64,000 nucleotides of DNA. Origin: Mytilus trossulus. Its lineage: Eukaryota. The notes beneath the pieces are model-generated. The model was not told where the DNA came from, searched no databases, and saw only the letters and a list, made by a program, of their open reading frames with translations. The translations under genes were made by a program, and so were the position numbers. Shown here piece after piece: positions 4,220 through 60,500 of this stretch (position 1 is its first letter; every line of letters begins with the position of its first letter). The stretch is taken from assembly GCF_036588685.1 (NCBI RefSeq), contig NC_086381.1, forward strand, positions 73,098,001 through 73,162,000. Reading direction: 5' to 3'.

Positions 4220-4720
4220 ATAAAGGCAACAGTAGTATACCGGTGTTTAAAAGTTTAAAAAAAAACAATGAGAGAAAACTAATCCGGGTTACAAACTAAA
4301 ACCGAGGGAAACACATTAACTTTTTAAAAGGAAAACAAAGAACCAACAGGAATACAGAAGTGCAACAAAAAAAAAACACCAATATAAACAAAACGAACTA
4401 TTAAATAACAACTGTTATATTCCTGACTTGGACAATTTAAGAAAAAAATATGGGATGAACCTTGTTTATTAGCTAGCTTTATAACAATGTTAAAACATAT
4501 CGCGGAAATGGCAACACTACGTGACAGAAATATAGTCCAAACAAACGCAAGAGCATTCATCCCAGAAATACAGAAACAAATAATATCACAGTCGACACAA
4601 CATGCAAACTGCAGAACAACAACAAACATATTAATTAACGACACACACCGCAGAATATACAAAACAGTCGCGCGCTTACGTAACAAACATGCAATTTCGA
4701 ACTTTATTTAATTATTTTCA
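4220..4720. repeat. Dispersed repeat family B; other copies ~9895-10020 and ~15330-15548
   Basis: Shared head taaaggcaacagtagtataccg...gttacaaactaaaac(c/t)gagggaa in three places. Confidence 0.7.
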
Positions 4721-6394
4721 CAATACTCGTCCAAAGCAATTTATCACAGTGACGTTATGGAAAGGCAATATTATAATTATATGGACTAAGATCAATAAGA
4801 CATAACAGAGTATCCAATCGGTACCATAACAGAAAACTTAAAAAAATGAATACTAGTGAGTACTACATTAGACGAGTTAATCCATTTAAACATTACAATT
4901 GATTTTTCTTGATTGTTTTTGTGTTTTTGAACCAGTGTCCCGGGTTTTTTTAAAGTGTTAAATATGAGCCTGTATCAAGTCGGAAACACGAAGTTTAGTT
5001 GCTGTTGTTGGTTGGTGTCTGTAAAATTTCTTTCGTTTAATTACTACAGCAGAATTCAGGCGTTAGTTTTGCCATATTGAATTGTTTTAAATTTTGCCAT
5101 ATCCGGGCTTTTGTCCGCTTGCAATATTGTACTAAAAAGTACTGTGTCGTTCGGTGTTGAATTGTTATTCCTGGTATCTATGATGAGTTTATTTGTATTA
5201 ATAAATATACAATTAGCAATCATATCACATCATTTTATATATTATAAAAATAAAATCCAACAAACACTATTTTACAGGTGTATGTGCTAATAACCATCAT
5301 TTTATATATCTATTTTACTCTGTATGCTGGCGTTGCTTTGATAAAAAAAAACCACGACATCACGATCCTGCAATACCAATGACATAAATGAGATATGTTT
5401 TATTGTTAAAACTTTTGATTTCTAAAAATACTCGCTCAGATCAAGCTGTTTTCTTTTAATCGCTTTCATAAATCAATTGTAACTTAAATGATACATGCGA
5501 TTTAGAATTTCTATGTCTGGGTTCGCCTAGCGATTGATAAATCAATTACAAGAAAGTAATAGTGACTTGTATAGGTTTATGTAACAATAACTTGACTGCA
5601 TAGCTGCTTGTTACTGACACTGTGTGATGTTCCTAGGCATAGAATGTACGAATGCATTAAATGAAAAATGACAGATAAGGCAACTTTCTGCCTTGAACTC
5701 TGGATGTGAAACTCTGGTGCAACAAACACTTAAGTATCGTTGTAAATTGTATAATGGAAAATGCTCTATTGGTTTTCCCGTTTAAATTGTTTGACACTAG
5801 TAATTATTGGGGCCTTTTAAGCTTTTCTGTTCGGTGTGAGCCAAGGCTCCGTGTTGAAGGCCGTACATTGACCTTTAATTGTTTACTTTTTAAAATTGTT
5901 ACTTGGATGGAGAGTTGTCTCATTGGCACTCATACCACATCTTCCTCTATCTGTTATTAAATAAAGGATATTGTGATGGGATAAATATTTATTAAAGTAT
6001 AAAGTGATAGAAACAAGTGAACATTTTTTTTTTAATATTTCTTCATGAGCAAGCCAAAAATAGAAAAAAATATCATAGAAGATCCTTAAATTTGTCTATG
6101 GAATCATAATATCAAAATTAAGATCTAAGTTCGATGTAGCTAAATGGTGATATATATACTAAAAGTAGAACAAAGGATACCAAAGAAAGTCGAAAATAAA
6201 CTGACTTTGTCATGGCTAAAAAAGAAAAAGATAAACAGACAAACAACTGTAAACAAAATAACATATAAAACCAAAAAATAAGCAGCACGAACGCAATCAA
6301 AAGCTGAGTGTAATCTCAATAGTTTCTGAAATGTCAGTAGATTCCTTTGTCATCCATAATATGTGTTTCTTCTGTATAACACATGTATTGATAG

Positions 6395-9300: not shown

Positions 9301-12300
9301 GAAAACAAATTCGTCTTGTCTAATTCTTTTTTTTTTTATCAATTGTTTTAAATGATAGACTTGCTTATGTGTTCTAAATGCATTTCGTTACTTGATAACC
9401 CTAGTTTAAGGTCAGTTCGTTCAGATTTAGATCATTTAATCTGATGCCCCATGTAAAGAGATTGCCAGGATCTTTGCACGTTGGGAACATTGCATCGACT
9501 GTTTGAGGGGTTGGTATGTTGACTGTTGCATGGCAAAACACCTTTCATTATCCTATAACACTCATTTTCCGATTGCCGTCCTTATATATATAGAAGTGTC
9601 TACCTTTGTGTTTATTGTTGATTAGTTTTCGTTTTGAACTTGTATAAAATATTTTTCCCTCGACGTAAAGCAACAAAAATCACTCAATATTATCTTATCA
9701 GTTCCATTAATCAATTAACTAATTCAAGGTAAATCATAAAATTGTACACAATTTTTTATTGTAGAAGACAATTTCAAGACCACTGTCAATTCTGTTTTTT
9801 ATTGTTTAAATTTGAATAGCTATAGTTTCTCGCAGTTTAAATTTCATAATAAGTTGCAACTTCATAACAAGAATAGGAGCATAGACAGCGTAAATAAAGG
9901 CAACAGTAGTATACCGCTGTTCGAAATTCATAAATCAATTGAGAAAAAAGCAAATCTGGGTTACAAACTAAAACTGAGGGAAACACATCAAATATAAGAG
10001 GAGAACTACTACACAACAGGCGTTGCTAATGGGCTTTATATATATGCCTTTTTGTGTTAACTTTTGTACCCCTAATTTTGACCTTTTTACTTATCATGTC
10101 TGTTTGTTTTGTTAACACACCGTTGTCAATATAAATAAACGTTATGCAACTGTCATACAAGTGAGAGGTTTATCTGGCTATAAAACCAAGATTAATCTGC
10201 CATCTTCAATTGAAAATGTCTGTACCAATTCAGGATGGTGACAGTTGTAGTCCATCCGTTTGATATGTTTTATCATTTGATTTTGCGATTTGATTAGACT
10301 TTCCGTTTTGAATTTTCCTCACAGTTCGGGTTTTTTTCCATTTATGCATGCATCACCCATAAACTTAAACCAAACTATCGTCTTTTGCTTTATTTTATTG
10401 TACACAATCGTATAAACAACACAACGTTTTCCTTTAAGTCATGCGTTGGTGTTCATTCTTTGCAAATGAGAAAGATTTTTTTTTTTCTTATAGCATTTCC
10501 TTTAAAATATTTTTTTTATATAATTGATTAATTGACTGTTCAGATATAATCTTGTATATGGCTAATAACATTTTCTTTCTTTCATTCCCTTTCCTTTTTT
10601 ATCTCTGAAATTTATTTATTTTCCGTTTTAGATATTTCTGAATCAAATATTAGACAAAATAGTAAATGAATAAGTATATTGTATGGCTATTGATTTCTTA
10701 TACTGTGAGCATACAGTGTCGTGAACATGACTGTCTGAAAATATCACTCCTACCATTTCTTTTTCATTGAACGATCTGCGAAAATTTCTAAGTAATGTAA
10801 TTAATTTGCATATTTTGGATATTCTTGTGTACTATTATTTGTCTGTTTGTCTTTTTCATCTTAAGGCATGGCGTTGTTAGTTTACTTTCGATTTATGAGT
10901 TTGTCGTTCCTCTTGTATCTTTTGCCCCTCTTTTAATATCATAGCTAATACATAGTTATCTTCTGTTCCATTTTCACCAATAAATGTACTATATGATTAA
11001 CTAATATGCTTACCCTTGAACAGAGAAGTACAAATAGTCGTATAAGTAATAAGGTAAGTCATTCCATGCATTGGTCGTAACATATGTTGGGGAGAACCAG
11101 TCAGTGTTACTGGTTCCTGGTGGAATGTCAAACCGCATTTCAACAACTGGTAAGCTATTTGTATGGATAACTATGTTAACCTTAAATAAATTCTTATTAA
11201 TACATGTTATTGGTAGAAAAAATAAAACAATGACCGTCATTGAAACTGTGTAAATATGATAATTTAAAAGTGAAATAAGCCGACTCTAAGTTACCGACGT
11301 TCAACTCTCGTCAAGCGATTAGGGAAAGTAAAAACTGAGAAAATCGCAATAAATAATGAGGAGAAAGATTTTTCAAACCAACAAAAGTTAAGCAATAGTT
11401 AGTTAACAATCAACAAAAGATAACATATAGTTAGTTTAAAACAAAAAAGTTTTACAAAAAGATAGTTTACAACCAACCAACAGAGGTAGTGTCAATTTCA
11501 CTTTGTATGTATTTCACTCGCAGGAATCGAATCCTACATAACATTTAATATTAAAGATAACAGGATTTGAATTATACTTTAATAAATTCATCGTAGATAC
11601 CAGGAAGGATTTGAATTATACTTAATTGATTGTTTCCTAATTTAACATATTTCTATAAAACCATGATATTATTCAGAGCTTCATATTGCTATGGAAGGAA
11701 TTACATGTGGATAGTGCATGTTTTTGTTAAAATTTGCATTAAAGAACGTCGGTTATCAATATAAAAATAAATTTGTATCCGAAAGAACACATATACCGGG
11801 TATCTTAACTTCCAACGTATGTTTTGTTTTGGTTAATGATGGCCTTCTTATACATTTTAAAGATTGGTGTATCAGGCTTTCGTGTGGTGTACACAAGTTG
11901 CTGATCTGTTTTGAAATAAGCAAATGCTATGAATTTAAATAGAGATTGAAAGACATTATGACAATTGTATGAAACAATTTCACTGCATATTGACCCTACT
12001 TCTTTTTTAATGTTTGCAATCACCTACATTAAGGAGAGGGCAATAACTTTTTTTTTATTATACTTCATGTCAAAAATGACAGATTTTGATTGGCTAATAC
12101 GAGGGTGTTACCATTCATGGAAACGCTTGATCAAGTGTGTGGTTTATTAAGTACGACTCTATCCTATGACAAATACTAGTACTCTCTTTCCTTTCACGGA
12201 GACGCTTGAAGTTTGCGCCTCAGTTGACAATATTTTCTCGGGGTAACAATCTGCTCTATCATCCTCTCAGAAATGTGTTATTTGTATAATGTTAACCTGT

Positions 12301-15276: not shown

Positions 15277-16489
15277 TTACGTTGACTATCACTACAGTAT
15301 AACTACTAGTATTAATCAAAGTTCATTTGATAAAGCCAACTGTAATATACCGCTCTTCATAAGTCATAAATCGATTGAGAGCAAACAAATCCGTGTTACA
15401 AACTAAAACCGAGGGAAGTACATCAACTGTAAGATGAAAACAATAGACAAACAGAACCATTGAAGTGCAACTAAACCTAACGTCAACATACATAGAAACT
15501 TACTATTTGATTACAATTAACTGCCATTTCCTGACTTGGAACAGGACAAATAGAATTGCAAAAAACGTTGAGACATGTACGGTAACAGAATGTTTGAACA
15601 ATTAAAATTGCTACTTTTTTAAATGTCAATCGAGTGTATTGCGTCACATTATTTGTGTAATATCAAGTAATCGGACTTTTTTATTTAAGGAATGACTGTA
15701 TTTTTTCTGTCTATGAAGAAATAACATAAAAAAAACACTGAATAAACCGCGTAAGTTATGACAAGTTCCCATTAAACAATTCACCACAATTTCTTGCAAG
15801 TTGGCGTTAACAGATTTGATTCCGATTGGTAGTCTCAATAAACTGCTTCGCTGAACGCAGCTGGATATGCCCGCAGAGGTTCGACCGTGAACAGTTGGGG
15901 CTAAAATAGACACATTATTGAAGCTTGATACAGGTCTGAATTTGGATTCTAATTAGATATTTGACATTTTGTAGGTTTCTGAATAAATGAAGTCAACGAA
16001 CTTGAAATAGTTATTATTAATTGAATTTATTTTCAATTAAAGATTTCTTGCTGTTGTGCAACACACTGTGCTGTTGTGTAATACACTGTGCTGTTGTGCA
16101 ATACTTAGTTAATATGTTGTCAGACTATAAACAAATAAAGTTATAATCATCAATGTCATATTAGAAATTTATGAAAATCAAAAAGGAGCTAAAAATTATA
16201 TCAATGGATATAAACAATTCACCAAAGTTTCATTATAATTGCTAACAGTATTTATGAGTTATGGTCCGAAAATTGGAAAATCCCCCCTTTTTTAATGAAT
16301 AAAATCCCAAAAAAAACGTAAAATCAAAAATTTATTAAAAAAAACGAAAGGGAGCTGACGTCCATATATATAAATAATTCACCATAGTTTATGCAAATTT
16401 GTTAAAGCGTTTTTGAACTAATCTCCGACAACTTGGCGGCAGACGGACAGACGGACAACGGTATTCAATCATTCGTCACGTTAATGCGC

Positions 16490-19999: not shown

Positions 20000-22900
20000 G
20001 CTGATACAACCCTGTCCCGGGTAAAAGAGGATTGGCTGATACACCACTATTCCAGATTAAGGGGATTGAGCTGATACGTCATTATTTTTAGTTAAAGGGG
20101 GCTCTACTAATACACTACTGCCCGATGTTGATGTTGTACTGATAATTATGACTGTCCAATGCTCAAAGGGGCTCTGCTGATAAACTATTGGTCAGGGTTA
20201 ATTTTACAATGAAACAAGGTGTAGGGATTTTTCAGATACACTATTACTACTGCCCAACATTATTTCTGTACTGGTGCACAATTACCTCCTGTTAAAAAAT
20301 TGTGTTTGCGCTGATAAACTACTGTCCAAGGTGAACGAAGTTACTGTGATACACTAATGACCTATGTTAATGCTGTGCTGATACGTCACTACCCCTGATA
20401 CACTACTGCCCAAGGTTAATGTTGTAATGATATACCACATTCCAAGATTAACGAGTTTTTGCTGATACACTGTTGTCCTATGTTAATGGTGTGCTGATCA
20501 TTACTGCCCCTGGTGCAACACTGTCCATGATGTTGTGATATACAACACTGTCATATGTTAATATTGTGCTGCTACACATCTGTTATATGTAAATGTTGGG
20601 ATGATATGCCACTGTCCCTGGTACACTACTGCCCAAAGTTAATGTTGTGATGATACACCACTGTCCCAGATTAACGAGGTTGTGATGTTTCACTACTGCC
20701 CTATGTTAATGATGTGCTGATACACCACTTCCCCTGTCACAATACTACCGAAGGTTAATGTTGTGATATTCAACATTGTCCCAGGGTAAGCCGGTTGTAC
20801 TGATACACTATTATCCTATTTAAATGGTGTGCTGATATGCCACTGCCCTGATACACTACTGTCCAAAGTTAATGTTGTGATGATACACCACTGTCCCAGA
20901 TAAACGAGGCTGTGATGTTTCACTACTGCCCTATGTTAATGATGTGCTGATACACAACTTCCCCTGTCATAATACTACCGAAGGTTAATGTTGTGATATT
21001 CAACATTGTCCCAGGGTAAGGCAGTTGTACTGATACACTATAATCCTATTTAAATGGTGTGCTGATATGCCACTGCCCCTGATACACTAATGCCCAAAGT
21101 TAATGTTGTGATGATACACAACAGTCCCAGGTAAACGCGGCTGTGATGTTTCACTACTGCCCTATGTTAATGATGTGCTGATACACCACTTCCCCTGTCA
21201 CAATACTACCGAAGATTAATGTTGTGATATTCAACATTGTCCCAGGGTAAGGCGGTTGTACTGATACTCTTTTATCCTATGTAAATGGTGTGATGATATG
21301 CCACTGCCCCTGGTACACTACTGTCCAAAGTTAATGTTGTGATGATACACCACTGTCCCAGGTAAACGAGGCTGTGATGTTTCACTACTGCCCTATGTTA
21401 ATGATGTGCTGATACACCACCTTGCCTGTCATTATACTACCGAAGGTTAATGTTGTGATATTCAACATTGTCCCAGGGTAAGGCGGTTGTACTGATACAC
21501 TATTATCCTATGTAAATGATGTGCTGATATGCCACTGCCCCTGATACACTACTGCCCAAAGTTAATGTTGTGATGATACACCAAAGTCCCAGGTAAACGA
21601 GGTTGTGATGTTTCACTACTGCCCTATGTTAATGATGTGCTGATACACCACTTCCCCTGTCACATTACTACCGAAGGTTAATGTTGTGATATTCAACATT
21701 GTCCCAGGGTAAGGCGGTTGTACTGATACACTATTATCCTATGTAAATGATGTGCTGATATGCCACTGCCCCTGATACACTACTGCCCAAAGTTAATGTT
21801 GTGATGATACACCACAGTCCCAGGTAAACGAGGTTGTGATGTTTCACTACTGCCCTATGTTAATGATGTGCTGATACACCACTTCCCCTGTCACAATACT
21901 ACCGAAGATTAATGTTGTGATATTCAACATTGTCCCATGGTAAGGCGGTTGTACTGATACACTATTATCCTATGTAAATGGTGTACTGATATGCCACTGC
22001 CCCTGATACACTACTGCCTAAAGTTAATGTTGTGGTGATACACCACAGTCCCAGGTAAACGAGGTTGTGATGTTTCACTACTGCCCTATGTTAATGATGT
22101 GCTGATACACCACTTTCCCTGGTACAATACTACCGAAGGTTAATGTTGTGATACGCAACATTGTCCCAGAGTAAGGCGGTTGTACTGATACACTTTTATC
22201 TTATGTAAATGGTGTGATGATATGCCACTGCCCCTGGTACACTACTGCCCAAAGTTAATGTTGTGATGATACACCACTGTCCCAGGTTAACGAGGTTGTG
22301 ATGTTTCACTACTGCCCTATGTTAATGATGTGCTGATACACCACTTACCCTGTCACAATACTACCGAAGGTTAATGTTGTGATATTCAACATTGTCCCAG
22401 GGTAAGGCGGTTGTACTGATACACTATAATCCTATGTAAATGGTGTACTGATATGCCACTGCCCCTGATACACTACTGCCCAAAGTTAATGTTGTGACGA
22501 TACACCACATTCCCAGGTAAACGAGGCTGTGATGTTTTACTACTGCCCTATGTTAATGATGTGCTGATACACCACTTTCCCTGGTACAATACTACCGAAG
22601 GTTAATGTTGTGATATTCAACATTGTCCCATGGTAAAGCGGTTGTACTGATACACTTTTATCTTATGTAAATGGTGTGATGATATGCTTCTGCCCCTGGT
22701 ACACTACTGTCCAAAGTTAATGTTGTGATGATACACCATTGTCCCAGGTTAACGAGTTTGTGATGGATTACCATTGCCCTATGTTAATGATGTGCTGATA
22801 CGCTACTTCCCCTGGTACAATACTACCGACGGTTAATGTTTTGATATTCAACATTGTCCCAGGGTAAGGCGGTTGTACTGATACACTATTTTCCTATGTA

Positions 22901-23320
22901 AATGGTGTGCTGATATGCCACTGCCCCTGATACACTACTGCATAAAGTTAATGTTGTGATGATACACCACAGTCCCAGATTAACGAGGTTGTGATGTTTC
23001 ACTACTGCCCTATGTTAATAATGTGATGATACACCACTTCCCCTGTCACAATACTGCCGAAGGTTAATGTTGTGATATTCAACAATGTTCCAGGGTAAGG
23101 CGGTTGTACTGATACACTATTATCCTATATAAATGGTGTGCTGATATGCCACTGCCCCTGATACACTACTGCCCAAAGTAAATGTTGTGATATTCAACAT
23201 TGTTCCAGGTTAAGGAGATTAAGCGGATACACTACTGTCCCATTTCAATGTTGTGTTGATACACCACTGTCCTATGCTTATACTGTGCTGATAAATCGCT
23301 GTCCCATGCTCAAGGGGTTG
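20000..23320. repeat. Satellite array: ~32-bp monomers organised as a 231-bp higher-order repeat (~11-12 copies) with diverged monomeric flanks
   Basis: Marker cactactgccctatg at 20691, 20921, 21152, 21383, 21614, 21845, 22076, 22307 ... 23000 (spacing 230-231). Confidence 0.95.
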
Positions 23321-24853
23321 TTTGGTCATAAACATATTTAAACCAACACATTTTTTTTAGGTCAATCCCAAATCGGGAACCTGCAATACAGTGGCTTAAG
23401 ATAGTTGCTGTTTGTTGTTATTTTTTTCCATCAGAAAGCAGTCCGATTGTTGTCTCTTTCTTTTTAGGAAAGTCTCTTATGCACCACATGAAGGGGACAA
23501 TCAAAACCTCTCCTCAGGGACAATATTGTATGGTATCATGTAACAGTTAAATTTAAGAGGACATATAATGAAGGCCATTTGTTGAGCCGAAATATTTGCA
23601 ATTATTGTATAATTTATATCATCTGCATGTTCAGTTTTTCAATCTTTGTGCGATGATATGCAACACTTTTTAGTGTTTTGTTTTCCATCTATTTATCGGT
23701 ATTGTTACACAATCTTTCAGACTCATAAAATAGATTATTGCTCATTAGTAAACATAATATGGAAGCTTAAGGCCCCGAGATTATTTTTATATATAAGCCT
23801 CTGTCGAGGTTTGTGAATTATATATAAGTCTGTTGGTCTCACGTGGTTGGTCTATCATCGACAATTTGGCTGCGTTAAACACAAGACCGTATGTATATGT
23901 AGTACATGTATGTATAAAATTATTCACAAGTGTACTGTTTGAAAGCCAGGAGAAGACTGCCAAAGCAACATTTTACAAAACATACATTAATTTAAAGTTA
24001 AGGGTATTAAATCATTATATAAAAGGTTCTCATAAAATGTATATCACTGTCCAATCTTATGTAATAATCATCGGATTATTGTCCTCCGATTAAACTTAGT
24101 TAAAAAAGAATAGCGGGTGCTCGAGCGGGTGTCTTCAATTTGATTATTAAGCCAAATATTTCATGATTATTTGATTACCTAGGACTGTATTTTTAGTTTA
24201 TGATTATTTGATTACTAAAGATAAGCAAATATTTAATGATTATGTGATTATATTGGCCAAAAAATGGTGATTATGTGATTACTAGGACCCCCCATGAGGG
24301 GCCTCATATATATTCAACCTATGTCTACAAACAAAATACAATAGGCGTTGTTATATCAATGTCAACACCTCTATTTCCCCTATCATTTCATTGAAAAATG
24401 GTCCCTTTTACATACCTGTTTAAAAGTAAATTTTTGAGCTTAAATGGTCCGTGACCCCCTTTTCAAAACGAGAGTTCATACACATATTCAATTAAAACTA
24501 GAGTTCATATAAAGCACTTTGCAAATTATAGTAAAAGTTCCCATAAATGTCACTTTTCTTCGGGTGTTCCGGCCAAATATCTCTAATATATAAAGCTTAC
24601 TTGCGTGAAAACAAAAATTTGTAAATATACTGAATACTCTCGAGTGAATACTATACTGAGTGCTCTATTTTAAAATTAAAGTTTGCATCTGGCTTACTAA
24701 ATCATGTGTGAACGTTTACGTGAAAGTTTACTGATGACTTAAAAACTTTCAAGTTGATACATGTCATTTTCTTAAGATGTGTACAAACATGACTAATAAA
24801 TACAGGTGTGTTTTCTTTAGTGAACTTTGAACTAGATGAATTATACTTCGAAA

Positions 24854-27751
24854 ATGTTGCAATCGGTGTTGTCCTTTTTTAGATTCAAAGTAAGTAAATA
24901 TAAATATTTATATTCATTTCTATATTAATATATATTTTTTTAAAAGGAATTAACAAAGTGATTACATAAGTTATGCATTATTTATTCCATTTCAAGATCG
25001 TTTGACCCAAATACTGTTTGAATTAGTGTAAACAATATTTTATTCAGAAACAGATAAATAAATACATCCATAAATGCAAAACATGGATTGGAAAACAAGT
25101 GAATCAAGGAAGTTAAGTCCATATCTTCTTTTCTGAAATATTAATCACTTCTGCAATGAATTTGTGATTTCTACAAACGTATATTTAAGGTTAAAAGTGT
25201 GGACACACATTGATGACACAGATGCTTTAGTCTCTCTTGTGGACAGTTGTATCATTGGCAATCATGCCACATCTTCTTTTTTATATTTACATTGTTGATC
25301 ATTGTTAGGAGTGATGAACATATATATTATATATATGCTGTAGCTCAATTATTTGTCGTAAGCTTTATCTAGATAACGTCTCTATAAATTCCATTGCATG
25401 TGGTAACAGTTACCAATATAATGAAGCTTTAAAGTTGGAAGATTGCTTTCAAATCCAGTAGAAAATGTCTTTTACATGTATGGTGTCTTTGTTGTGGTTT
25501 TGGTCTTAATTAATCAATGAGTATTGATAAGTATTGATCAAAATACAGTTGTCACGTAATTTTAAGATCAATATTATTCTTGCCAACATGAATCCCAAAT
25601 AGCAGCAGTGGGGGAATCCAGAACTTTTCCTAATGGGGGGCTGGCTGATTGGCCTAAAAAGGGGGGGGGGCTCCAGTGATGCTTCAATGATTCCCTATAT
25701 AATCAACAAAAATTTTCCAACAAAAGGGGGGGGGGGGGGGGCCTGGATCTGCCTATGAGCAGTAAATGATATTTGTAGTGTGATAGCTTGTTTTATCTGA
25801 GACTAATACATATAGATTCAACATCTATTAGTCACAGATTTTATTTTTTACAATAGTTCATAATTTTGTCTGTTTTATAATTTTTATTTCCCTCTAGATG
25901 TCCCTTTATTAACTTTCGTCATTTCGTTTGGTTGTTGATTATCCATCGTATCCTTTTATTCATGTGATACTTATCCAATGCAGAGTTAAAAAAAAAACTT
26001 TGTTACTCCTAAAATCTATTGACATCTAACAAAGGCACTTTTTATTTCTTTTTCAGAATGATGAAACAGATGGTTACAAATCTGTTTGTGGAATCTGTCA
26101 TCTCCGCAATCTTTCCAAACCATCAGTGACCTGGTGTTCAGAATGTTATGAACATCTTTGTAAAACTTGTGTGGATAACCACACATTTTCTAGAGCAACG
26201 AAACACCACAAAACAATTACAAATTTGGAATACAACAAGTTATCTTCCTTTATAAAAAATATTAAACCATTTTGTGAAGAACATGAAGACAAATACCAAA
26301 TGTACTGTCAAAGTCATGAAAGTCCTTGTTGCAGGAGATGTTTACTAAAAGATCATCATAACTGTAAGGACATTCATCCATTGGAAAATATAGTGCAAAA
26401 TGTCAAATCATCCAGTGCTTTCGAAAACCTGGAAAAAAGTTTGGAAGAAATGATGAAAAATATCACACAAATCCAGGAGAACAGACTAAGCTACTTGTTT
26501 TCTGTACAGAAGTCAAAAGTAGATATTGAAAACGAAATTCAGCTAATTAGACTCCAAATAAACAAACATCTAGATCAAGTGCAGAACAAGCTTATAATGC
26601 AGCTAAATACAGAGGAAAACAAGGTTGTGAAAGAGATAGAAACTTTCACCAAGTCACTGAAGGAAAAAGAAAAAGAAATTGATGAACTTTTGACAAATGT
26701 TCAGCATTTAAAAACATGTGCATCAGACCTTCAAGCTTTCTTAAGCATGAAAAAAATAGAAAAGACATTTTTTCCTTGTGAACAGTATATCCAGAGTTTG
26801 TTCAAAGATAGAATTCTTGACCAAACTACCATATCGTGCAGTATCAACAACAAAATTAAAAAAATACACACAAGAATACAAAGTTTTGGGAAAATCAATA
26901 TAAGTAAAAAGGAATGTGATATTGCCCTAGTGAATGAAAGAGAAAGACAAGCACAACTTATGGTTGATGTGTCTATTGACAACTGTACTCTAAAGTTGAT
27001 ACAGAAAATGAATAATTTTGGTAGCCAGGTGACGGGATGTGCAATATTACCCAGTGGAAAGAAGCTGTTTTGTAATTTTTCACCAGCTCGCCTTATATTG
27101 GTAAACATGGATAAATTAATTGAAAAGACTATTTCTCTGGAAACAATGAGTGCCTTTGATGTGACACCCCTTGATCGAGATACAGTAGCTGTGACCTCAC
27201 CAGTAGATTCTTGTATTACAATAGTTGACCTTTGCAGACAGGATGCCATAAGAACTTTCAAAACACATGACAGCTGCTTTGGAATAACATTACATGATGG
27301 GCATTTAGTATTCTGTGCCTCAAATAAAGGATTGCAAAAGTTAGATTTACAAAATGACAATAAAATTACAAATGTTGTGACATTTAAATGTTCTGATGAA
27401 TCATATGTAACATCATGGCATGACCAATTGTACTTAGCAGATGCCAAAATGAAAGCTGTAGTTTGTTTCAATACCGAAGGAGAAGTTAAGTGGAAATTTG
27501 AATTGGAAGAAACAATTCTAGGAGGAATATCTGTCGATTGTCATGGCATTGTTATGGTTGCTAGTCGGAACACTGCTAATATTATCTTGATCTCTCCTAG
27601 CGAAGCTCGATATAAACACGTTCTAGGCTGGGATGACATACAAGACAGCCCTCTAGCTATTGATTATGATAAACACACAAAAAGTTTGCTCATTTCTTGC
27701 ATAAGTGGATCAGCCTTTTTGTTTATTGTAGAAAAGAATAAATGTTCATAG
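24854..27751 (+). CDS. RING-less TRIM-like protein (2 B-boxes, coiled coil, NHL-like beta-propeller), ~576 aa
   Basis: Exon 24854-24889 (MLQSVLSFFRFK, GTAAGT donor, phase 0) joins exon 26057-27751 in frame; CGIC...WCSEC...LCKTCVDNH...HH; CEEH...YCQSH.SPCC..C...H; heptad region; propeller-like repeats. The small first exon is less certain than the main exon. Confidence 0.85.
25606..25757. mobile_element. Short non-autonomous DNA element with poly-G tracts
   Basis: Imperfect TIRs CAGTGGGGGAATCCAG / CTGGATCTGCCTATG; direct 5-bp flank AGCAG on both sides. Confidence 0.65.
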
Positions 27752-30873: not shown

Positions 30874-31197
30874 ACTGGGAGGCTAGACACAATCACTGCA
30901 TATCTATTTCTGTTTTAAAACTTCTGAAAATAAAACAAGCTTCCTATTAAGTTTTAGTGATATGAGATCTAATGATGGTTCAAGATGTCTTATTTTTAAT
31001 AGACAGGCTGTATCAGGCCCACTTGCCTCACACTTCATCTACAGGAAAAGAAAATATATTTTTATATGAAACCAACTTCCATTTTATGATTCAATGTAAT
31101 GTAGTGTGTCGTTTATTATGGAATCTTTTTGGTCAATGTGTTTTGTCTCAAAGTCTCAAATAAAATCACACTGTAATCTGTTAAAGATAGAATATCA

Positions 31198-31495
31198 TAA
31201 AATTTAGATTGGAAATGGGGAATGTGTCAAAGAGGCAACAACCCAAACCGAAGAAAAAAAACCAACAGCAGAAGGTCACTAACAGGTCTTCAATGTAGTG
31301 AAAAATTCCCGCACCAGGAGGCGTCCTTCAGCTGGCCCCTAAACAAACATATACTAGTTCAGTAATAATGAACGCCATACTAATTTCCAAATTGTACACA
31401 AGAAACCAAAATTAAAATAATACAAGACTAACAAAGGCCAGAGGCTCCTGACTTGGGACAGGCAAAAAAATGTGGCGGGGCTGTCTTAACATGTT
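31198..31495 (-). repeat. Dispersed repeat family D; other copies ~36975-37310 and ~51368-51700
   Basis: Shared ggaaatggggaatgtgtcaaag...gtcttcaatgtag...ccttcagctggcccct...caagactaaca. Confidence 0.8.
31436..31480 (-). ncRNA. 3' half of a twister-like ribozyme (family D)
   Basis: CCCC-GCC-ACATTTTTTT-GCCTG-TCCCAAGT-CAGGA-G-CCTCTGGCC. Confidence 0.6.
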
Positions 31496-31524
31496 TATAC
31501 ATGTAACATATTAAAACTAAACAA

Positions 31525-32820
31525 TAGATATAGGAAGATGTGGTGTGAGTGCCAATGAGACAACTCTCCATCCAAATAACAATTTAAAAATTAAACCATT
31601 ATAGGTTAAAGTACGGCCTTCAACACGGAGCCTTGGCTCACACCGAACAACAAGCTATAAAGGGCCCCAAAATTACTAGTGTAAAACCATTCAAACGGGA
31701 AAACCAACGGTCTAATCTATATAAACAAAACGAGAAACGAGAAACACGTATATATTACATAAACAAACGACAACTACTGTACATCAGATTCCTGACTTAG
31801 GCAATTGCAAATATTTGCAGCGGGATTAAACGTTTTAATGGGCCCAAACCTTCTCCCTTTTTCTGAAACAATAGCATAACATCACAACATATAAAAACAT
31901 ACGATAAAATATCAATTAGCAGACTTAACTCAATCAAAAAACGTATGATTACACAAAGAACGAATAAATTTGATCTGCGATATCTGAATACAAATGCACA
32001 GTTAATTAAATATTAGAGACAAACAGTCATGACCAAAAGGCTATCAAACAATTTCAAACACACTGAGAAATATTTAACCAATCAATGTTCACTTTAGAAA
32101 AAAACCGGTTTTTTATAATCTTGAAGTTTATACAAATGTTGTAAGAATAAGTGAAAAATTGAAGATATTACAAATAATCAAAGCTGGTATACAGCCAAGA
32201 TCCATATAATTAAAAATGACAAAAAAGCATTATAAACAGTATCAACAGGTCGAATTAACAAGAAAATACGATTTGAGAGTACTCGCAGTTACTGACAGCT
32301 AGTTAAAAGCCAAAACCAATTAATAGTAAAAAATCATGCATCAGAGACTAAAATCGACTAAAACACATCACAGGGATTTAGTATTTTAACGTCATTTATA
32401 GTCAAAGAAGACATGACTTGTGCAATGCCAAAAATAAATGTATCGACAGGTAGTAGTATAGTGAAGAGCGACTTCTATAGAAATGAAAGTTAACGTGGCT
32501 GTGTCCCCTATACATCTCGCCTCAAAAGATAATGAAATTTAGTTATGTTTTAATTTGCTAATGACAAAATCAATATTAGTGCCAATGTGAACTATATTCA
32601 GAGATCTAATTACAATATTGGTACGATAACCCTTACTTATAAGTTTGTTTAAAGGTTCGATGAGTTTACAAGGATCACATAGTGATTTCCTCGCTTTAAG
32701 TACAATATTACCATAAAATTTAGGATGAGAAATACCATTTTTAATAAGCTTTCTACAGGTATAGCCAAATTTACTAATCAAATCTTTGTATCTATGAAAG
32801 AATTTAGTAAAAGTTTTAAG
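31525..32820 (-). mobile_element. 5'-truncated retroelement, probably Penelope-like: C-terminal end of the RT ORF plus ~1 kb of 3' region (family A)
   Basis: ORF remnant LKTFTKFFHRYKDLISKF...GISHPKFYGN...KGY at 32820-32539 resembles the post-RT region of molluscan Penelope-like elements. Its distal end (gaagatgtgg...gccaatgagacaactc) recurs at ~1-50, 5760-5950, 8500, 18970, 25230, 40810, 44200, 58250, 61925. Confidence 0.65.
31774..31874 (-). ncRNA. Twister-like ribozyme, type P5, in the 3' region of the Penelope-like element (P4 5' strand damaged)
   Basis: TCAGA-AAAA-GGGA-GAAGG-...-TAA-TCCC-GCT-GCAAA(TA)TTTGC-A-ATTG-CCTAAGT-CAGGA-A-TCTGA. Confidence 0.6.
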
Positions 32821-33540
32821 TATATGTCTGTTACTGAAAAAAATCCATTTTACTCTCTAACATTATTACAATGTATACTATCATAATAAAAAATTTGCAT
32901 GCGGCACCCTAATAAATGTTATTTCACCTATTCAAAGATAAGATGTTACATAATTATAAATTAAACTATCAAAACTAAAGATCTCTTTCTTCAAGTCTTG
33001 TTTGTCATGAGAATTTTAGTATTATATATATTTATCAGTCTAATAATAAATAGGGATGAGCACAATAACAATTTTGTTTTAAATTAATTATTCTTAGGTC
33101 AGTGATACTGTTGGCTTTTTTCAAAACTACCCTTTCCCCTTTTTATTGGGAAAATATGCATAATTTTTATCAAATTGGGAAAATAAACCATGAATTTGAT
33201 AGGAGCTTCAATTTACAGACCCCCTTTCAAGAGGTAAACCCTCATTTATAATAAGACCCCTTATTGTCAGTGATGATACATAAATAGACTGAAATCTGCA
33301 CATATAGTCATTGTAGGCATGAAAAATGTTTCAATGAGTGTTTTTCAGTTTGTATTTAATGCACAATTACTACTGAGACTGCACTGTTTGGGAAAAGATT
33401 TTATTTTCTGGTAATTTTTAAAAGGCAAACATAATTTATCACTGTTAGGTATGAAAAAAAAAGTTACCTGCTGATAGATGTAGCGTCTCTTTGTTTAAAT
33501 TGAAAATGGCATAATGACTAAAATGATGTCGCAAATCCAT

Positions 33541-36388: not shown

Positions 36389-37487
36389 ATATTCTTAGTA
36401 TACCTGACCCATACCTGTACTTTTTTTATTGCCTCATTTGTGTGTCTATGCTTTTTCTTCAAGCTTCAATTTTGAGATAACATGCTGCTAAGTACTTAGT
36501 TAACAATTCAAATCAGTTCAGATTTCAATACACAACAAATAAATTATTAAAACTTTGCCTACTCCTACTTGATCAAGTATTAAAGTCTTTGAGCAGAACA
36601 GTCTGTCTGCACAACTTAAAACCATGATTATGATATGACAGATGACTTAAATGTCTAGCAGCAAGTTATATGCTCCTTAGGAACAAGAACAGGCAAATGT
36701 ATACAGTGCATTCACACATCCAAACGGGTTACTTTATAGATTGATAAAATCAAATTTGACCTAAATGAAACAAATTTATTAGATTATATATGATTTTTTG
36801 TATGGCGATTGTTTTTTTTCTACAATGGACTCGTCACCAAACTATGATTGCTAAAAAATCATAAGAGGAGATTGGTTAAAAGTTAGTTATGAATGATGAC
36901 CATTCTTGATTATAACCAAATTAAGAAGCTGGTTAGAATATTATGATTTTTCTGTAAACAATAATAAATTATAAAATAGAGAATGGAAATTGAGAATGTG
37001 TCAAAGGTACAACAACCTTTCAGTAACCAAAGAGTAAAAAACAGGCGACAGCCACCAATGGGTCCTCAACTCTGCGAGAAAATCCTGCATCCAGAAGAGG
37101 ATTCCTTAAAGAAAAAATGTCTACTTGTTCAGTAAAAATGGATGTCATACTTAACTCCTTAACCTATAAATGAACTGAAATTAAAAAATAAATACTTGTT
37201 GTAAGACTAACAAAGGACGGAGGTTCATGACTTGGGTCAGGCGCAAAAAAGTGGCCGGGTTAAACCTCAACTCTTCTTCTATACATTTTTTATAACTCTA
37301 GCTAATGAAGATTATGTTGTGCAAAAAATGGTAATTGTAAATGAAACTCCTTTTTCAGCAGTTCATGTATTTTAAAAATACTCAAATACAATATGTATGT
37401 GTGCACGTGGAACATTGACAAATAAATTTGTTATTATATTATAGTTATTTTAAATTTTCTTTCAGGTAATGAGAATTTTTCAGAACG

Positions 37488-43400: not shown

Positions 43401-46397
43401 GGAATAATAGTTTGTGCTCTACTAATAGACTGGATTTGACAGTTGATCTGAGGAAAAGTACAAATTACAAGTTAAAAATGTGTCTTCCTTCTGAATGAGA
43501 AGAATAAGCCAATTCAGAAAATCAGGACCAAATAGCTATTGTGAGCTTTTCTCTCCAATTTAAATGTTGATTAGATGTATATTTTGCCATATATGCTAAT
43601 ACTATTATATTTGTTTCTTATTATAAGATAAATAGTTGAAAAAATACTGTAAAATAATGCTTTACAGCAGACGTGTGATTGAAGGTTTATTGATCTTGTT
43701 CTTTTATATTTACAGCTGGGCCACAACCAATATTACCTCGGCCCTCGCCTATTGGTAGTGGTGGATCACTACAGACCTATGCCCTGATACCAATACAGAA
43801 TGTACCCAATTCTACAGCACAGAATCAAAATCTTCCTCTTACAAGTTCTCAGGAATCTACATCTAGTGAAAGTATGAAATATTTATTAGTCATATTAGAT
43901 TATATTATACAAGATTTATTGTTTAAATGATATTTCTGGTTAAGGGCATACGATACAGTTACAGGGAAGGTAATGACGTTGCTAACGTAAATTGTTATTT
44001 TCACGACGTCAAACAGTGACTTATCTGGAAAAGAGGCAGTTTTCGGCTGAATTTTATCATTCAAACTGATTTAATTTGAAAACGAGTGCATGGATCCCCA
44101 GTTTTTAAACCGTCATTTTGTTTCATTTTGCAAGGAGATTATGTGGACCAAATTTTATAAAACTGTAAATAGTGCAATTTTTTTAATTTTGATATATACT
44201 TTAACCTATAATGGTTTAATTTTTAAATTGTTATTTGGATGGAGAGTTGTCTCATTGGCACTCACACCACATCTTCCTATATCTATATACAGCAAAAAAT
44301 TACGTTTTTTCTCATTTCATGACCATTTGATAAATATGAGTTATTTCTGAACAAAAAAATGCATTAATTTTTTAGAATACTTATAAAATACAGAAATTAC
44401 AAATTATTTAACAAAAAACAATTTGTGTTTATCTTTTGAAACAAAAAAGTTATGTCTTTCTTTCGAAAAGAAAAATACAGCCACAAATCCGAATTTTGAG
44501 CAAATATACAAAATATCGACCTCATTTAACTCAAAAAGTTGCACATGAAGGTATATTTTTTATTACATATTTGATTTAATTGGGTAAAAAATAGCCTTTA
44601 TGCAAATTTTTATCAACTTGTAAATACAAGATCAAAACTGTATCATATGCCCTTTATACTGCACTGTTGATTTATTTTAACTCATAAAATGAAGGAACAA
44701 ATTGGTGATTCTAAATAGAAAAGGTATGGTTGGGAGATTATTTGGCCCTGTCAATTGACTAAAAGAAGAATGGTTGGATGATATCACAGTTATATTTTAA
44801 CCTGCTAAATGTTGTCCTTTATAAAAAAAAAAAAATGTTGGGAATTGCTTTGCCTTGATGATGCAAATTGATTTTAATGTCATAATAATTTTTTTCATCA
44901 AAAACGTTTATTTTCAAGATTTTTTGTTTCTAATTAGTATAGGGCACACATCAGTCAAAACCATTCTTTTGAAACAACAAGAAGATAAATATTAAATACA
45001 CCTCCTGTATTGATATCTTTGGCAGCGATTATGCTCTATCTTTTCTTAGCATCTGTTTGTCAAATTCACAATCTGTTTGATAAGTCTTCATCAACTGTCT
45101 TTTCATGGCTGTTTTACGAATAAACTGGAGATATTTTTCAGTTCTTTCTTATACTACAATGATTCAACTTTTCTGTCTGCAAATTAAGAAACTTGGAAAT
45201 ACAATTCAAACTTGCCTTTTCCCATCATCATTTATGATAAATAATACAATCTTATAGAAAGTTCATGAAAAGTAAACAAACTTGCAAATGAAATCATTCA
45301 CTGAAATTTAGATTACTTGCAAATGTTTGGTTTTTTTTTAATCTTTTTTTTTCCAAGTTTCTTAAATTGAAATTTCTTATTAAATATGATTTCATTGTAC
45401 AATTTATCAGTTTTATAAACATTATTTGTTTTAGTAATCTACCTGACTGTTGAAGCATCCACATTTACTTCTATACAGGCTTTAATTTTCATCTTCAAAT
45501 ATGTTCAGATATATTATTTTGTTTGAATAAAGAAAATTTTAACCTAATGAAAAGGGAAATTGTTTCTTGTATAAATTATTTCTATTATTTTTATCTGTTT
45601 CAGATTCTCAGTCCGATTCAAAGAAAGGCAATAAAACCAGAAAGATTGCTCCAAAATTGTCTCCTTCATTACTGTTGTCCCCACCAAACATTGTCAAACA
45701 GGCATGGCTTGATTCGCAGGCTCTGAGCAGTAGTGAGGCTGAAGGTCTAGGTGAAAGTAATAAAAGTGACAATGAAACATGTGCCAAAAGAGCCAGAACA
45801 GGCTTGCCTCAACCAAAACTATATTCCAAAGATCCTCAACCTGTTAGACGAACTAGATCTAGACGGAAGCAGAAGTTAGTTCCCAAAGAACGTGAATTAA
45901 TGCAAGATAGTTCAGATGAAGAAACTGAATATGCAAAGTTTGTGTCACGATTAGAAGAAGAACTTCCGACTCCGATGAGGAAATTACTCGATGAAAATGT
46001 TGAGAAATGTGATGAATCAAGTGCAATAACCTCTACTCCTCTTAAACACTCGGGATTCTTACCTCAGATGCCTTCACCTTTCTCAGGACTTACACCGCTA
46101 AAAAATGAAAATATTTTGGATAATAGCTTCCTAGAATGTTTGAGAGGTTCCCCAAAAATGACAACCAAAAAGTCCCCATCATCATCTTCCAGTTCTTCAC
46201 CAAAATTAGACTTGAATTTCATTGGTCTAACACCTATTAAGATTAGTAACCATGACAATTCTTATAATCTGTCCAAGTTTTTAGCTGAGTATCCCTTGGA
46301 TGCTAATATGGTTGATGATGCAGATGTGTTGCCGGTTGATCTATCTGCTTTGAACTGGAGTGCCGTACAAAATATGTTGCCTTTGGATAATAGCTGA
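37488..46397 (+). CDS. FOXM1: Forkhead box M1 orthologue, ~962 aa, 7 coding exons
   Basis: Exons 37488-38853, 39264-39415, 39766-39933, 41436-41571, 42894-43010, 43716-43871, 45604-46397; all GT-AG with consistent phase (2889 nt). SLTNIQWL motif; forkhead RPPFSYMTLIQMAL...KRMRLRDI..WIE..FPYYK..AKPGWRNSIRHNLSL...F.RE....SYWT (AKPGW is FoxM-type); QPILPR; C-terminal TPxK CDK sites and LSKFL...LNWS tail. Confidence 0.92.
42181..42430. mobile_element. Intronic MITE
   Basis: Inverted arms ttccccgatcccgaccctg / cagggtcggtcgggattggggaaa. Confidence 0.65.
42533..42722. mobile_element. Intronic MITE with hAT-like termini
   Basis: 15-bp perfect TIR CAGTGTTCTCCCCAG / CTGGGGAGAACACTG; no clear 8-bp TSD. 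Confidence 0.75.
43944..44652. mobile_element. Intronic non-autonomous DNA transposon with a nested family A fragment (~44200-44288)
   Basis: TIR GGGCATACGATACAGTT / AACTGTATCATATGCCC, flanks TTAA/TTTA. Confidence 0.75.
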
Positions 46398-50235: not shown

Positions 50236-51608
50236 CAAAAACTGATGTCCTACAAATAATAATGAATTCAAAGAGACATAACCATCATTGTTTACCATTG
50301 TTCTAAGTATAGAGAAGGAAGAAAATCATTGTCATGATTTCAATAGTGAAATATCCTAAATACTCTCTGCCATGTATGTTGTAGCCATTTTTTCAAAGAC
50401 TCTGAGGTGTTGTGCAAAAAAGAATTCTATGCAAGTTTATATAAACATGTTCAAATCAAAAGTTTGTGAACATCACCAGACAAATTGTCAAATGAATATG
50501 GAGTACGATTTTATTTTTCCTTTACTGTTTTGATCCCTCATTTATTGAAGCACTTATTTGGATTAAATTCATCAACACTTTTCATGGACAAAAGCTAGGT
50601 TTAAAAAAGCCTCACACACACAAAAAACATACTGTCTCTGTTTTATAATTTTTGTCTCTCCTGCAACAAGTTGTTGATGAGAGTGAGACAAAGGAATGCT
50701 AACCTGGCTTCATTTGTTAGAAATTCTCTGTGGTCTTGATGGAGGTTGTCAGTTTGATCACTGGATTGGTTAAACCTAAGACATGAAAATTAATATTTGC
50801 GTCTTTGACTGGTGTGCTCAGAATAAGGTGTATTGGTAGGGTGACACATCTTTCAGCAGACTTAACTAGCACATTAAAAATCCATCTAGGCTTGGTGATC
50901 CAGTTCAAATTAAGGTATATTTCATATCACACCATGCAAGACCCTCATGGGTAGTCCAGCTTATTGAAACATCGTTTTGTTAATATCCTGAATATGCATT
51001 TAATTTCTACTTGATATTAAGGATGTACACCTGAGGAGCATCATTTTCATTAATCTTACTGCTGAAAAAAAATATTGTTTTATTTTTAAATTGAAATTCT
51101 CTCATGATGAGTACATTTTTGTAATAGGATAACTTAATTTGGTATATGAATTCACTGGCACTTGTCTCAGAAAAAATATTTCAGTTATATAAGGGGGGGG
51201 ACAAGTGCCTGTGTATGAATTCCTTGCAATTTTCATGGTTCATTGAACAAACTTTATTTGGTGTATGGAATTATTGTTAATTGTACATGGTTCTTCTATT
51301 AAGTTCTAACTGTGACTTCATTTTTATTTATCATTGATGATGTTATTTATGTGATGCTTGTAAATAATAAAATTGAGAAAGGAAATGCGGAATGTGTCAA
51401 AGCGATAACAACCCTAGAGCAGACAACAGCCGAAGGCCACCAATGGGTCTTCAATGTAGCGAGAAACTCCTGCACCCGGAGGCATCCTTCAGCTGGCCCC
51501 TTAAAAATATGTATACTAGTTCAGTGATAATGGACGTCATACTAAACTTCGAATTATACACAAGAAACTAAAATTAAAAATCAACAAGACTAACATATGA
51601 TATTACTA

Positions 51609-51656
51609 GGTTAAACATGTTTAAGAGATCTCAACCCTCCCCCTATACCTTTAGCC
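51609..51656 (-). ncRNA. 5' half of a twister-like ribozyme (family D, 3' half deleted)
   Basis: GGCTAAAGG-TATA-GGGG-GAGGG-...-TAA-CC. Confidence 0.55.
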
Positions 51657-57580: not shown

Positions 57581-60500
57581 ATGCAACAGCCATTTACGAA
57601 CTCTGAGGCAGTTAAAAGATGTCTGACTATACCTGATCATCCTATTCCTGGTGTACCTAGCTATGCACCCAAACCCCCATTTGGAACAAGCAAAAATGTC
57701 AGGAGCCGACCATATTCAGGTAAGTGCATGACACTTGGAACATACAAGAAATTTTAGTCTAATAAACATGAACACTGGTGGTCATTTTGCTTATGTAAAT
57801 TAATGTAGCTGCAGTTTAGATCATCCAGTATATTACTGTTGAAGAGCAGCAATAAAAAGTTTCGGTCTATTAGATATAAAACTTAATTGACTCTCCACAC
57901 CAGAAGTTGTTTAAGGCCTCTATGTAGGTACATGTATAATGTCATTTCTTACCATTTTAGGAATTCGTTTTCATGTGCATGTATAGTGTTAGTTTTTTAG
58001 GAATTCGTTTTCATGTGCATGTATAGTGTTAGTTTTTTTGGAATTCGTTTTTATGTGCATGTATAGTGTGCGTTTCACTTTCTTAACAATAAAAAGACAA
58101 ATTTATCATGGGTTCTTTTGTGCTGTAATAACACACCTATTGCCCATGCATGGTCCCCATAAAGGGATGTAGGATGCTAAACAATATTATTGCTGATAAA
58201 TTATATGAATAGTCTCTTGTTGATTTGATCAAGCAGTTAAATTATATAAAAGAAGATGTGGTATAATTGCCAATGAGACAACTATCCACAAAAGACCAAA
58301 ATGACACAACCATTAACAACTATAGTCACCGTACGGCCTTCAACAATGAACAAAGCCCATACTGCCTAGTCAGCTATAAAAGGCCCTGATAAGACAATGT
58401 AAAACAATTCAAACGAGAAAACTAACGGCCTTATTTATGTAAAAAAATGTTAAAGTCTATGAATACATATTTTAATATGGTTCCAGTTAGATATTATTTT
58501 TATAAACTTAAGACTAAGCAACACAAACCCCACAAAAAACTGGGGTGATCTCAGGTGCTCCAGAAGGGTAAGCAGATCCTGCTTCACATGTGGCACCTAT
58601 TGTGTTGTGAATAAACATAATGTTTTAAACCTAAACAAAATAAGTTTCTTCAATTGCATAACATTTCAACATACTTTTGCAATATATTGAGTAAGACATT
58701 TTGGTTATAATCAATACTTTTAGTGGTACTTTTTTCATCATTTCTTCTTCTAAAAATTACCTTTGTTATACATTTGTTTTTATGGATAGAAAAAAATTAC
58801 ATTAAAATGTCACTATGACATCAACTTAACAATAAACCAAAACAAACAATAGTCTTTTCTTATCCGTATTAAGAATGCACTCTTACAATTGTGTCACTGT
58901 AACCTGTAAGACAAACATAGTTTGATTATAAAATAGATAGTATTGTTATAATCCTGGCAAATGTGATAAAACATCCATGAAGATGCTTAACGAGGAAATA
59001 AATCTCCTTAATAATTTATCCTCTTGTTTCTAATGTAAATACAGAAAATCAATGTAATTTGTTGATGCTTTGTGCTATAAAGCTACATTGGTTATTGATT
59101 TGTATATAATATATAGATTGAAAAAAGGTCTGAAAAATCACTAAGTAACACGACAGGACGGACAGGACTTTCAGTTTTACCTGTAATTTTACCTGTTGTA
59201 ATGACATTGCAGTAAAACATTAATTGACTGTAGGATGTGACATTTAATTGATCATGTAAATTCCATGTTGCGGAATCTAATGAGGAATGGCTTTTGCAGT
59301 GTTAACACTTTTGTATTGTAATTTCAACAGCATATTTCTAGTAATGTTAAAAATGCCATGTTTAAATTGAGTTGTTTGTTGATTTTTGTTATCATATCCT
59401 TGAACATTTTTGCCTTTGATCTTTCTGATACACATATCTTTTGACTAGCAGATATACTGTCATGATATTAAATATTTGCAAAATAATTAGACATTACCAC
59501 AGTGGCGTGACATGAAATAACAGAGTTGTTCTACTAAGGGACATGACGCTAAGAATCTCAATTATCTCTGCTGATCATGGTGGACAATCTGTAAAAATTG
59601 TGATATGTACACTATGGATTTTCTTTTTTCACTCAGAGTATCTAATATATAGGAATGTCCTGAGGTGGGTTGACTCAAATGTATTTGAAAGTCACAAATG
59701 ATGAGACACTAAAAAAACCAGCCTGATAATATCACAAGTATTGTTAATGTGTATAGTATAATTAAGTCCTAGCATGGTGTAGCAATCAAAATTTCTGTCC
59801 CAATCAAACTGACCCTTTTCAAACAGTGGTATTTCAAAATTTATGCCTCCATAACCTTTGAATTGTAATAACCAGTTATTAGTTTAGGTGCTTTATGTGC
59901 ATGACATATTTGCAACATGAAATTAATTTAGCAAACTACAATCAATAAGTCTACATGCACATTTTTTTTCTAGACTTTGTCATGAACACAGTAAACCAAA
60001 AAAAAATTAATAAAAAAGGTATGAAATAAAAGAGAAGATCTGAATTGAAACTTTGGAGGTTCACAGAAAAAACCTCTTACAGAGAAACATTTTATGTAAC
60101 TTAAGTTTTTAAGTGGTATCATGTTGTCGTCCATGTCGTCCAAAGAAACATTTCGTTTCCAGACAATAACTTTTGTTTTAGTGAATGGATGTCTATAGAT
60201 TTTTACCAGAAGGTTCAATCAAATAAATGCATACACTGCTTTTTGCATTCTTATTGAAAATTCTTTCTGCATTATTGTAAGATCTCTGATTGAACTAAAG
60301 CAGATACCTGTTTGATTTTAATAACCAATACTGGCTGTATAGAGAATTTAAATGACTTCGTTATTGTCCGTGACATGTTTGATGTTTGTTACTGAATTTC
60401 AATGAAGAGACGGACAATGAAAGTAAATTATTATACCAGGTAGGTTTAAAGAGATCGACTTATTTATACTTAAAGGTCACTTATCACTAATATTGAAAAA

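Follow-up and report, generated by a model that had tools for sequence, protein, structure and literature searches.

The window (i.e., the whole 64,000-nucleotide stretch of Mytilus trossulus DNA analysed here) carries on its minus strand the 3′ portion of a Penelope-like retroelement which, as argued below, almost certainly belongs to the Naiad clade. The features of this copy and of the tail next to it are as follows:

31524–32822, minus strand: Naiad Penelope-like retroelement copy, 5′-truncated, with its 3′ UTR/pseudo-LTR tail whole (99.1% identity to metagenome contig L002)
32539–32822, minus strand: C-terminal end of the reverse transcriptase (RT) and stop codon (98% identity to protein P0001)
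32344–32405, minus strand: SECIS-like hairpin, about 135 nt 3′ of the stop (Rfam SECIS_1, 26.9 bits)
32276–32325, minus strand: 3′ UTR block conserved with sister families (matches in L004, L048 and L042)
31784–31866, minus strand: type-P5-permuted twister-like fold (covariance model; covariation; Rfam Twister-P5 match on the relative L007)
31801–31805, minus strand: lesions affecting the 5′ strand of P4 and the first base of L4 (comparison with L002)
31524–31783, minus strand: distal tail beyond the putative ribozyme; its family is the source of the dispersed repeat found most often in the window
31197–31496, minus strand: tail of a second Naiad family (L007/L008 type; 93% identity to L007 3857–4094)

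A first-pass annotation had described an RT-tail-like ORF remnant ending at 32539, and this remnant is indeed the RT C-terminus. It is contained in a stop-to-stop frame of 105 codons (32856–32539, minus strand), in which the 11 leading codons belong to the flank and the trailing 94 to the element, the latter matching residues 910–1003 of the L002 frame with 98.9% identity; the 90% cluster of P0001 includes Mytilus proteins. L002 is one of the relatives that were fetched from metagenome contigs (the best 80 of the 164 stretches encoding one), and its positions 3201–4501 align with window 32822–31524 at 99.1% identity over 1301 nt (12 differences), the window copy thus corresponding to the 3′-terminal 1.3 kb of a roughly 4.4-kb unit. 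The ORF and the tail are likewise contiguous in L002 and in a further contig, L003 (96.7% identity to the window copy), such that the linkage proposed at first pass holds at these other loci as well. At the window copy itself, no target-site duplication was seen and a pLTR is absent.

Extension to a full-length element succeeded in the metagenome contig L002, which has one frame of 1003 codons, interrupted by five TGA only, so that reading TGA as selenocysteine (Sec) leaves the endonuclease-RT frame intact. This frame encodes an N-terminal GIY-YIG-type region and a C-terminal RT, and its motifs (i.e., CX2-5CxxC, GIY-YIG-like motifs, KR-rich block, CxC, GxKY, DKA, and RT) follow the order given for Naiads (PMC8557442). 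Motif inspection placed GIY-YIG-like motifs N-terminal to the RT in both L002 and L007, with the frame ending right after the RT. Moreover, the CX2-5CxxC motif and the Cys pair inside the GIY-YIG core are present, with TGA at some of the Cys sites, and the Naiad-type DKA is found in place of DKG, alongside the KR-rich block, CxC and GxKY. Pfam yielded no match for the 1000-residue L002 protein. The Penelope-like class suggested at first pass is thus borne out by the Naiad anatomy of this frame, and the assignment to the Naiad clade, of which the element forms a new family, is made by motifs and layout with near certainty. The element shares with published Naiads (PMC8557442) the N-terminal endonuclease region, the CxC, GxKY and DKA motifs, the C-terminal RT, the lack of a canonical hammerhead and the heavy 5′ truncation, whereas its RT end and tail differ from those of the published Naiad_Mgal. 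The tail of L051 resembles the published Naiad_Bpla.

The tandem terminal repeats of Penelope-like elements were found too, since contig L002 opens with the element's own last 59 bases, immediately 5′ of the 5′ UTR, and the own 3′ end likewise directly precedes the 5′ UTR in L006, L007 and L009 (a partial-tandem/pseudo-LTR layout that collapsed assemblies could mimic in part). Twister copies upstream of the ORF occur in L019, L032 and L052. In X22, the summed contig depth (which reflects contigs only, and not copy number) rises about 1000-fold from 5′ to 3′ bins, and this 3′ excess fits 5′ truncation.

At each of the five in-frame TGA codons of L002, all of the 12 other long ORFs that were aligned have Cys or TGA, and three of the five are sites reported for clam Naiads; the sites encountered include the one before GIY-YIG, the first Cys of CCHH, and DKA+8. 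The SECIS-like hairpin of the window copy scores 26.9 bits against an Rfam gathering score of 35 (E 0.016), with a fold z of –2.98. Rfam SECIS_1 matches after the stop were obtained in 7 of the 17 loci scanned, with scores (26.6–32.3) that all lie below 35, together with a canonical pattern and a stable hairpin. The SECIS pattern was found in most TGA-bearing families tried, though not in the TGA-bearing L044 nor in the Cys-only L051 and L052, and it lies between the stop and the twister wherever both were found. Because of the five TGA at cysteine sites and the SECIS-like hairpin after the stop, the L002-type element is probably a selenoprotein gene, in which TGA would be recoded to Sec. It agrees with the selenoprotein Naiads of clams and spiders (PMC8557442) in having TGA before GIY-YIG, in CCHH and at DKA+8, and in the 3′ UTR location of the SECIS (here SECIS-like), but has five TGA instead of three or four, and about 135 nt instead of 1–21 nt between SECIS and stop. 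Of the published Mytilus Naiads, neither appears as a selenoprotein in the accessible text of that paper.

At DKA+8, Cys instead of TGA is present in L005, L010 and L025, and both L005 and L010 retain a SECIS-like pattern and TGA at other sites; Cys/Sec switching varies from site to site. The conserved 3′ UTR block at 32276–32325 matches L004 and L048 at 81–82% and recurs as a 72% block in L042. In numerous families, L014, L019, L030 and L032 among them, a conserved 3′ UTR block is likewise located between SECIS and twister, and has a hairpin-like look in clam-type tails.

The twister-like fold, which had been placed about 670 nt downstream of the ORF on the same strand, begins 673 nt 3′ of the RT stop. 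Its strands and predicted cut on the minus strand are the following:

31866–31862 and 31788–31784, minus strand: P5 strands
31857–31849, minus strand: P2′, GA and T1′
31839–31846, minus strand: palindrome 1, at the position of the P1 stem
31828–31835, minus strand: palindrome 2, whose last base lies immediately 5′ of the predicted cut
between 31828 and 31827, minus strand: predicted cut
31825–31820, minus strand: P2 and T2
31819–31806, minus strand: P3
31801–31795, minus strand: L4
from 31794, minus strand: P4′

A covariance model with nested stems only, for which nine relatives were used (including L002 and L003, of the same family), scores the window fold at 75 bits. Its folding energy is unremarkable (z = –0.13), and the case for the fold rests on conservation and covariation rather than on stability. 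When 82 sources (327,865 bases) were searched at a threshold of 25 bits, the model matched 38 of the 80 metagenome loci, nine of them training rows, and always on the RT strand. Matches were obtained in 36 of the 46 loci with at least 300 nt after the RT, so that the motif's position after the RT on the sense strand recurs across many families. Most of the ten long-tailed loci without a match are short, broken or from another branch: the L029 contig ends within the motif, in L057 the motif, carrying a long insert, is visible by eye, L044 and L061 end short of the place where L072 has the motif, L022, L055 and L069 pass into unrelated or broken sequence, and L067 has a different motif (see below). 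A P5-permuted twister descriptor with a cut-off of 29 (the L022 score of 30 being dropped as chance) reached at least 29 in 32 of these 46 loci, but is soft on its own since reverse strands reached 30.

Pair counts were made on 43 distinct aligned rows, leaving out the MAFFT alignments A2 and A3, in which the 5′ strand of one branch was misregistered. Paired cells amounted to 89.4%, compared to 68.9 ± 1.2% in shuffles (0 of 500 as high) and 35–43% when the strands were slid, with the proviso that the relatedness of the sequences inflates shuffle tests and that the nested stems were fitted. Changes on both sides were seen in 14 of the 16 pairs, and the pseudoknots T1 and T2, neither of which is in the model, were paired in 88% and 90%, again with double changes. 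In the model alignment, the general-base G is present in 37 of the 38 loci and AA at the cut in 36 of 38. Stems P2, P4 and an open P5 are present across cores, with P5 closing the fold by 5–13 bp; in the window copy, P4 carries damage. Nine of the 23 cores have U-U as their third T1 pair, and mismatches are frequent at the second P2 pair. The motif is found on both main branches of an RT tree (42 of the 80 loci, comprising relatives only), i.e., in the clade that bears TGA as well as on the Cys-only L051/L052 branch, and can be seen by eye at the 3′ ends of the published bivalve consensi Naiad_Mgal, Bpla, Mphi, Scon and Mmer.

With the Rfam Twister-P5 model, L007 was parsed identically, scoring 23.1 bits (E 0.0038) when 151 nt centred on the motif were searched; this is below the RF02684 gathering score of 37.6, and no Rfam twister match was obtained in the window or in a 68.7-kb scan of 17 loci. 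As a control, an 18-mer of P4/L4 was matched 35 times in genome contigs, mostly by chance and in bacteria, and 30 of these 35 loci scored below 23 bits or had no model match; bacterial DNA sharing only this 18-mer is given up to 22 bits. Four control loci scored higher, i.e., L082 and L096 (from mussel-symbiont assemblies), L106 and L114. In the latter two, which come from bacterial assemblies, the match extends to 27–31 bits, and they are possibly true bacterial twisters or host contamination. Viral contigs yielded one irrelevant weak match, and the tail motif was not matched there.

On these grounds, the fold is very probably of the twister type. It has in common with type-P5 twisters (RF02684, clan CL00120; PMC6154101) the strand order, P2, P3, P4 and P5, both the T1 and T2 pseudoknots, the U/A cut site and the general-base G. 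It differs from them in having two palindromes for P1, a sub-threshold score and an animal retroelement tail as its setting. With the canonical P1 stem replaced by two palindromes and the score short of the RF02684 cut-off, the putative ribozyme is filed as a twister-type variant rather than as a regular type-P5 member. Intact copies are likely to self-cleave at the predicted site.

The P1 segment holds two self-complementary palindromes of about 8–11 nt, which were significant against shuffles (p < 0.02) in 21 of the 23 distinct cores. Palindrome 1 comes in 15 different sequences, and between L002 (4178–4185) and L003 (2135–2142) it underwent a central double change that kept its self-complementarity. 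Hairpins would not explain the palindromes, since their centres leave no room for a loop, and the fact that they are variable yet self-complementary is better accounted for by base pairing than by a fixed site for a protein. Moreover, the P1-slot segment is predicted at 0 to –5.9 kcal/mol alone and at –13 to –26 kcal/mol as a pair. The palindromes may pair two ribozymes of a tandem transcript, in which case each twister core would lie at a three-way junction, connected to its partner by two short helices. Penelope hammerheads also have palindromic loops and are thought to act as dimers (PMC6765202). For the twister-like fold, we rate dimer action at slightly below an even chance. Action as a monomer is also conceivable since P1 is dispensable in natural twisters. 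In pseudoknot-blind predictions, the fold with unoccupied catalytic strands lies 2–15 kcal/mol above the lowest-energy monomer, and monomer folds often sequester the catalytic strand, in no single conserved way.

The first-pass proposal that a twister-like motif stands in for the hammerhead was upheld as well. Rfam found no hammerhead in 17 loci, and the hammerhead core pattern was absent from the window element and L002, and absent with stem II from every tail. Craig et al. (2021), who detected no canonical hammerhead among Naiads, raised the possibility that Penelope-like elements are simply parasitised by hammerheads, and the word "twister" has zero occurrences in the accessible text of that paper (PMC8557442). 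In the accessible literature, we found no report linking Naiad or Penelope to twister; twister lists elsewhere in print could include bivalve entries. The retroelement twisters that were found in the accessible literature occupy the 5′ end of RTE-type LINEs. Specifically, the Perere-3/RTE twister variants (PMC8501958; PMC7761336) are like the mussel fold in being retroelement twisters with an incomplete P1, but sit at the 5′ end of a LINE, where the target site completes P1, whereas the mussel fold is P5-permuted and lies in a Penelope-like 3′ tail, about 300 nt from the end. The minimal type-I hammerheads located in pseudo-LTRs of canonical Penelope-like elements (PMC6765202, PMC7761336) resemble it in where they sit in the element, in having a palindromic segment and a tandem layout, and in the dimer action and freeing of unit-length RNA proposed for them, although they belong to an unrelated ribozyme class and have one palindrome instead of two.

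Taken together, we consider it probable that the locus is a 5′-truncated Naiad insertion with a twister-type fold in its tail that likely cuts the RNA of intact copies at the hammerhead's usual place; a role of this fold in processing the element RNA is given somewhat less confidence, while still being favoured. Because copies sit head to tail, one transcript would cross the twister of the upstream tail and then that of the downstream tail. Intact copies would be cut between the bases equivalent to window 31828 and 31827, and two such cuts would free a unit of about 4.4 kb in which ORF and SECIS stay joined, and which could be circularised. The element's RT would then copy the released RNA from its tail end, and early termination of copying would yield an excess of short tail copies. 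A more tentative and, on balance, slightly disfavoured extension is that in bivalve Naiads the hammerhead has been replaced by a dimeric twister, in which the palindromes pair both ends so that only unit-length RNA is cleaved.

The alternative that survives best, even though we deem it unlikely, is an active monomeric twister that simply lost P1, with the palindromes serving elsewhere (as a site for a dimeric protein, or in template pairing during reverse transcription). Natural twisters can dispense with P1 (PMC11662667), the 5–13 bp of P5 suffice for closure, and the Penelope-like element (PLE) protein of Anolis is predicted to be a dimer (PMC11167929), but the palindromes occupy the exact P1 slot and, against a protein site, vary widely while staying self-complementary. 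Clearly less probable is a twister-derived fold that does not cut in vivo and persists as a structural or protein-binding tail element or as a passenger. The scores below the Rfam threshold and the T1 and P2 mismatches in one large branch would agree with this, as would the Anolis Poseidon hammerhead, the one PLE ribozyme tested in vitro, whose cleavage was dispensable for insertion and for which no reads ended at the cut site (PMC11167929). However, conservation of the catalytic G and A, and of the two pseudoknots, extends over RTs with only 42–99% identity to P0001, and a passenger would be expected to decay, as it did in the window's old copies. Finally, a chance likeness or a separate short repeat inserted after the ORF, which the lack of an Rfam match in the window and the ordinary folding energy might suggest, is, barring chimeric contigs, refuted by the recurrence of the fold downstream of the RT, on the RT strand, in 36 of 46 loci, by covariation far over controls and by the contiguity of ORF and tail in L002 and L003, and retains only a marginal probability.

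The probable twister-type processing just preferred concerns intact copies, and the window copy is not among them. Compared to the intact L002 (motif at 4153–4248), it has substitutions at 31805 and 31804 and a deletion at 31801, and P4 is mispaired in its predicted fold. Since these three P4/L4 lesions destroy part of the P4 5′ strand, its twister-like fold is probably impaired, albeit that natural twisters often tolerate P4 defects, and P1 defects too (PMC11662667).

The distal 300 nt of the tail matched 10 other window fragments by blastn (67–100% identity), in agreement with the first-pass count of at least nine and with its ranking as the most frequent repeat of the window: in a self-comparison from which tandem and local matches had been removed, all nine regions with at least three partners belonged to this tail group. 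Since fragment identity ranges this widely and only two fragments (44197–44286 and 5769–5958) reach at least 90%, the short repeats are, by sequence comparison, the tails of several sister Naiad families. The earlier view of them as truncated products of one lineage is thus retained as to their being Naiad tails, and abandoned as to the single family. Most window fragments end before reaching the ribozyme.

The L007-type tail at 31197–31496 comes with one half, the 3′ one, of its own twister core at 31497–31435 (32 bits with the model). This tail, which starts at its palindrome 2, and the copy at 31524–32822 are tails of different Naiad families, 28 nt apart on the same strand, and one of them may have inserted into or beside the other. 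Worn twister-like cores from sister Naiad tails were also noted at 62164–62253 (minus) and 51570–51655 (minus), and further ones at 37214–37291 (minus), 1416–1515 (minus), 15518–15629 (minus), 23301–23389 (plus) and 10149–10246 (plus), the latter five scoring 20–24 bits, a range that is reachable by a P4/L4 core alone. No support was found for short copies beginning at the predicted cut, which speaks against a needed role of cutting: the sequence of the window copies at 62222 and 37265 carries on upstream, albeit diverged, and no loose ends at the predicted cut of L002 (4196) were present among the ends listed.

The twister-less Naiad branch has another conserved multi-stem motif shortly 3′ of the RT stop, with a 10-nt palindrome, at the following positions:

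L050, about 1060–1170
L054, about 1505–1610
L065, about 2605–2715
L067
L077, about 1172–1263
window, about 58510–58615, minus strand

Among five sequences, 11 of the 27 predicted pairs of this second motif show double changes, and no meaningful Rfam match was obtained; it is a candidate for a second ribozyme type. Elsewhere in the window, a 231-nt unit, itself containing subrepeats of 32–49 nt, is repeated in tandem about 11 times at 20000–23300, and the frame of a TRIM-like host gene (573 codons) lies at 26030–27751 (plus strand), encoding B-box zinc fingers and, C-terminally, a beta-propeller.

With the present element, candidate selenoprotein-coding transposons extend to mussels. As the Rfam model misses the P1-less palindromic twister, many copies in bivalve genomes would be unannotated, and the role of such ribozymes becomes testable in very abundant bivalve repeats. 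That an unrelated ribozyme class is kept in the hammerhead slot across many Naiad families argues that self-cleavage is needed, as opposed to mere parasitism. If the dimeric-twister reading is true, dimer action would constitute a new twister architecture, the twister-less Naiad branch may hold a third, undescribed ribozyme, and self-cleavage together with dimerisation would be a general requirement of Penelope-like elements that is met by unrelated ribozymes.
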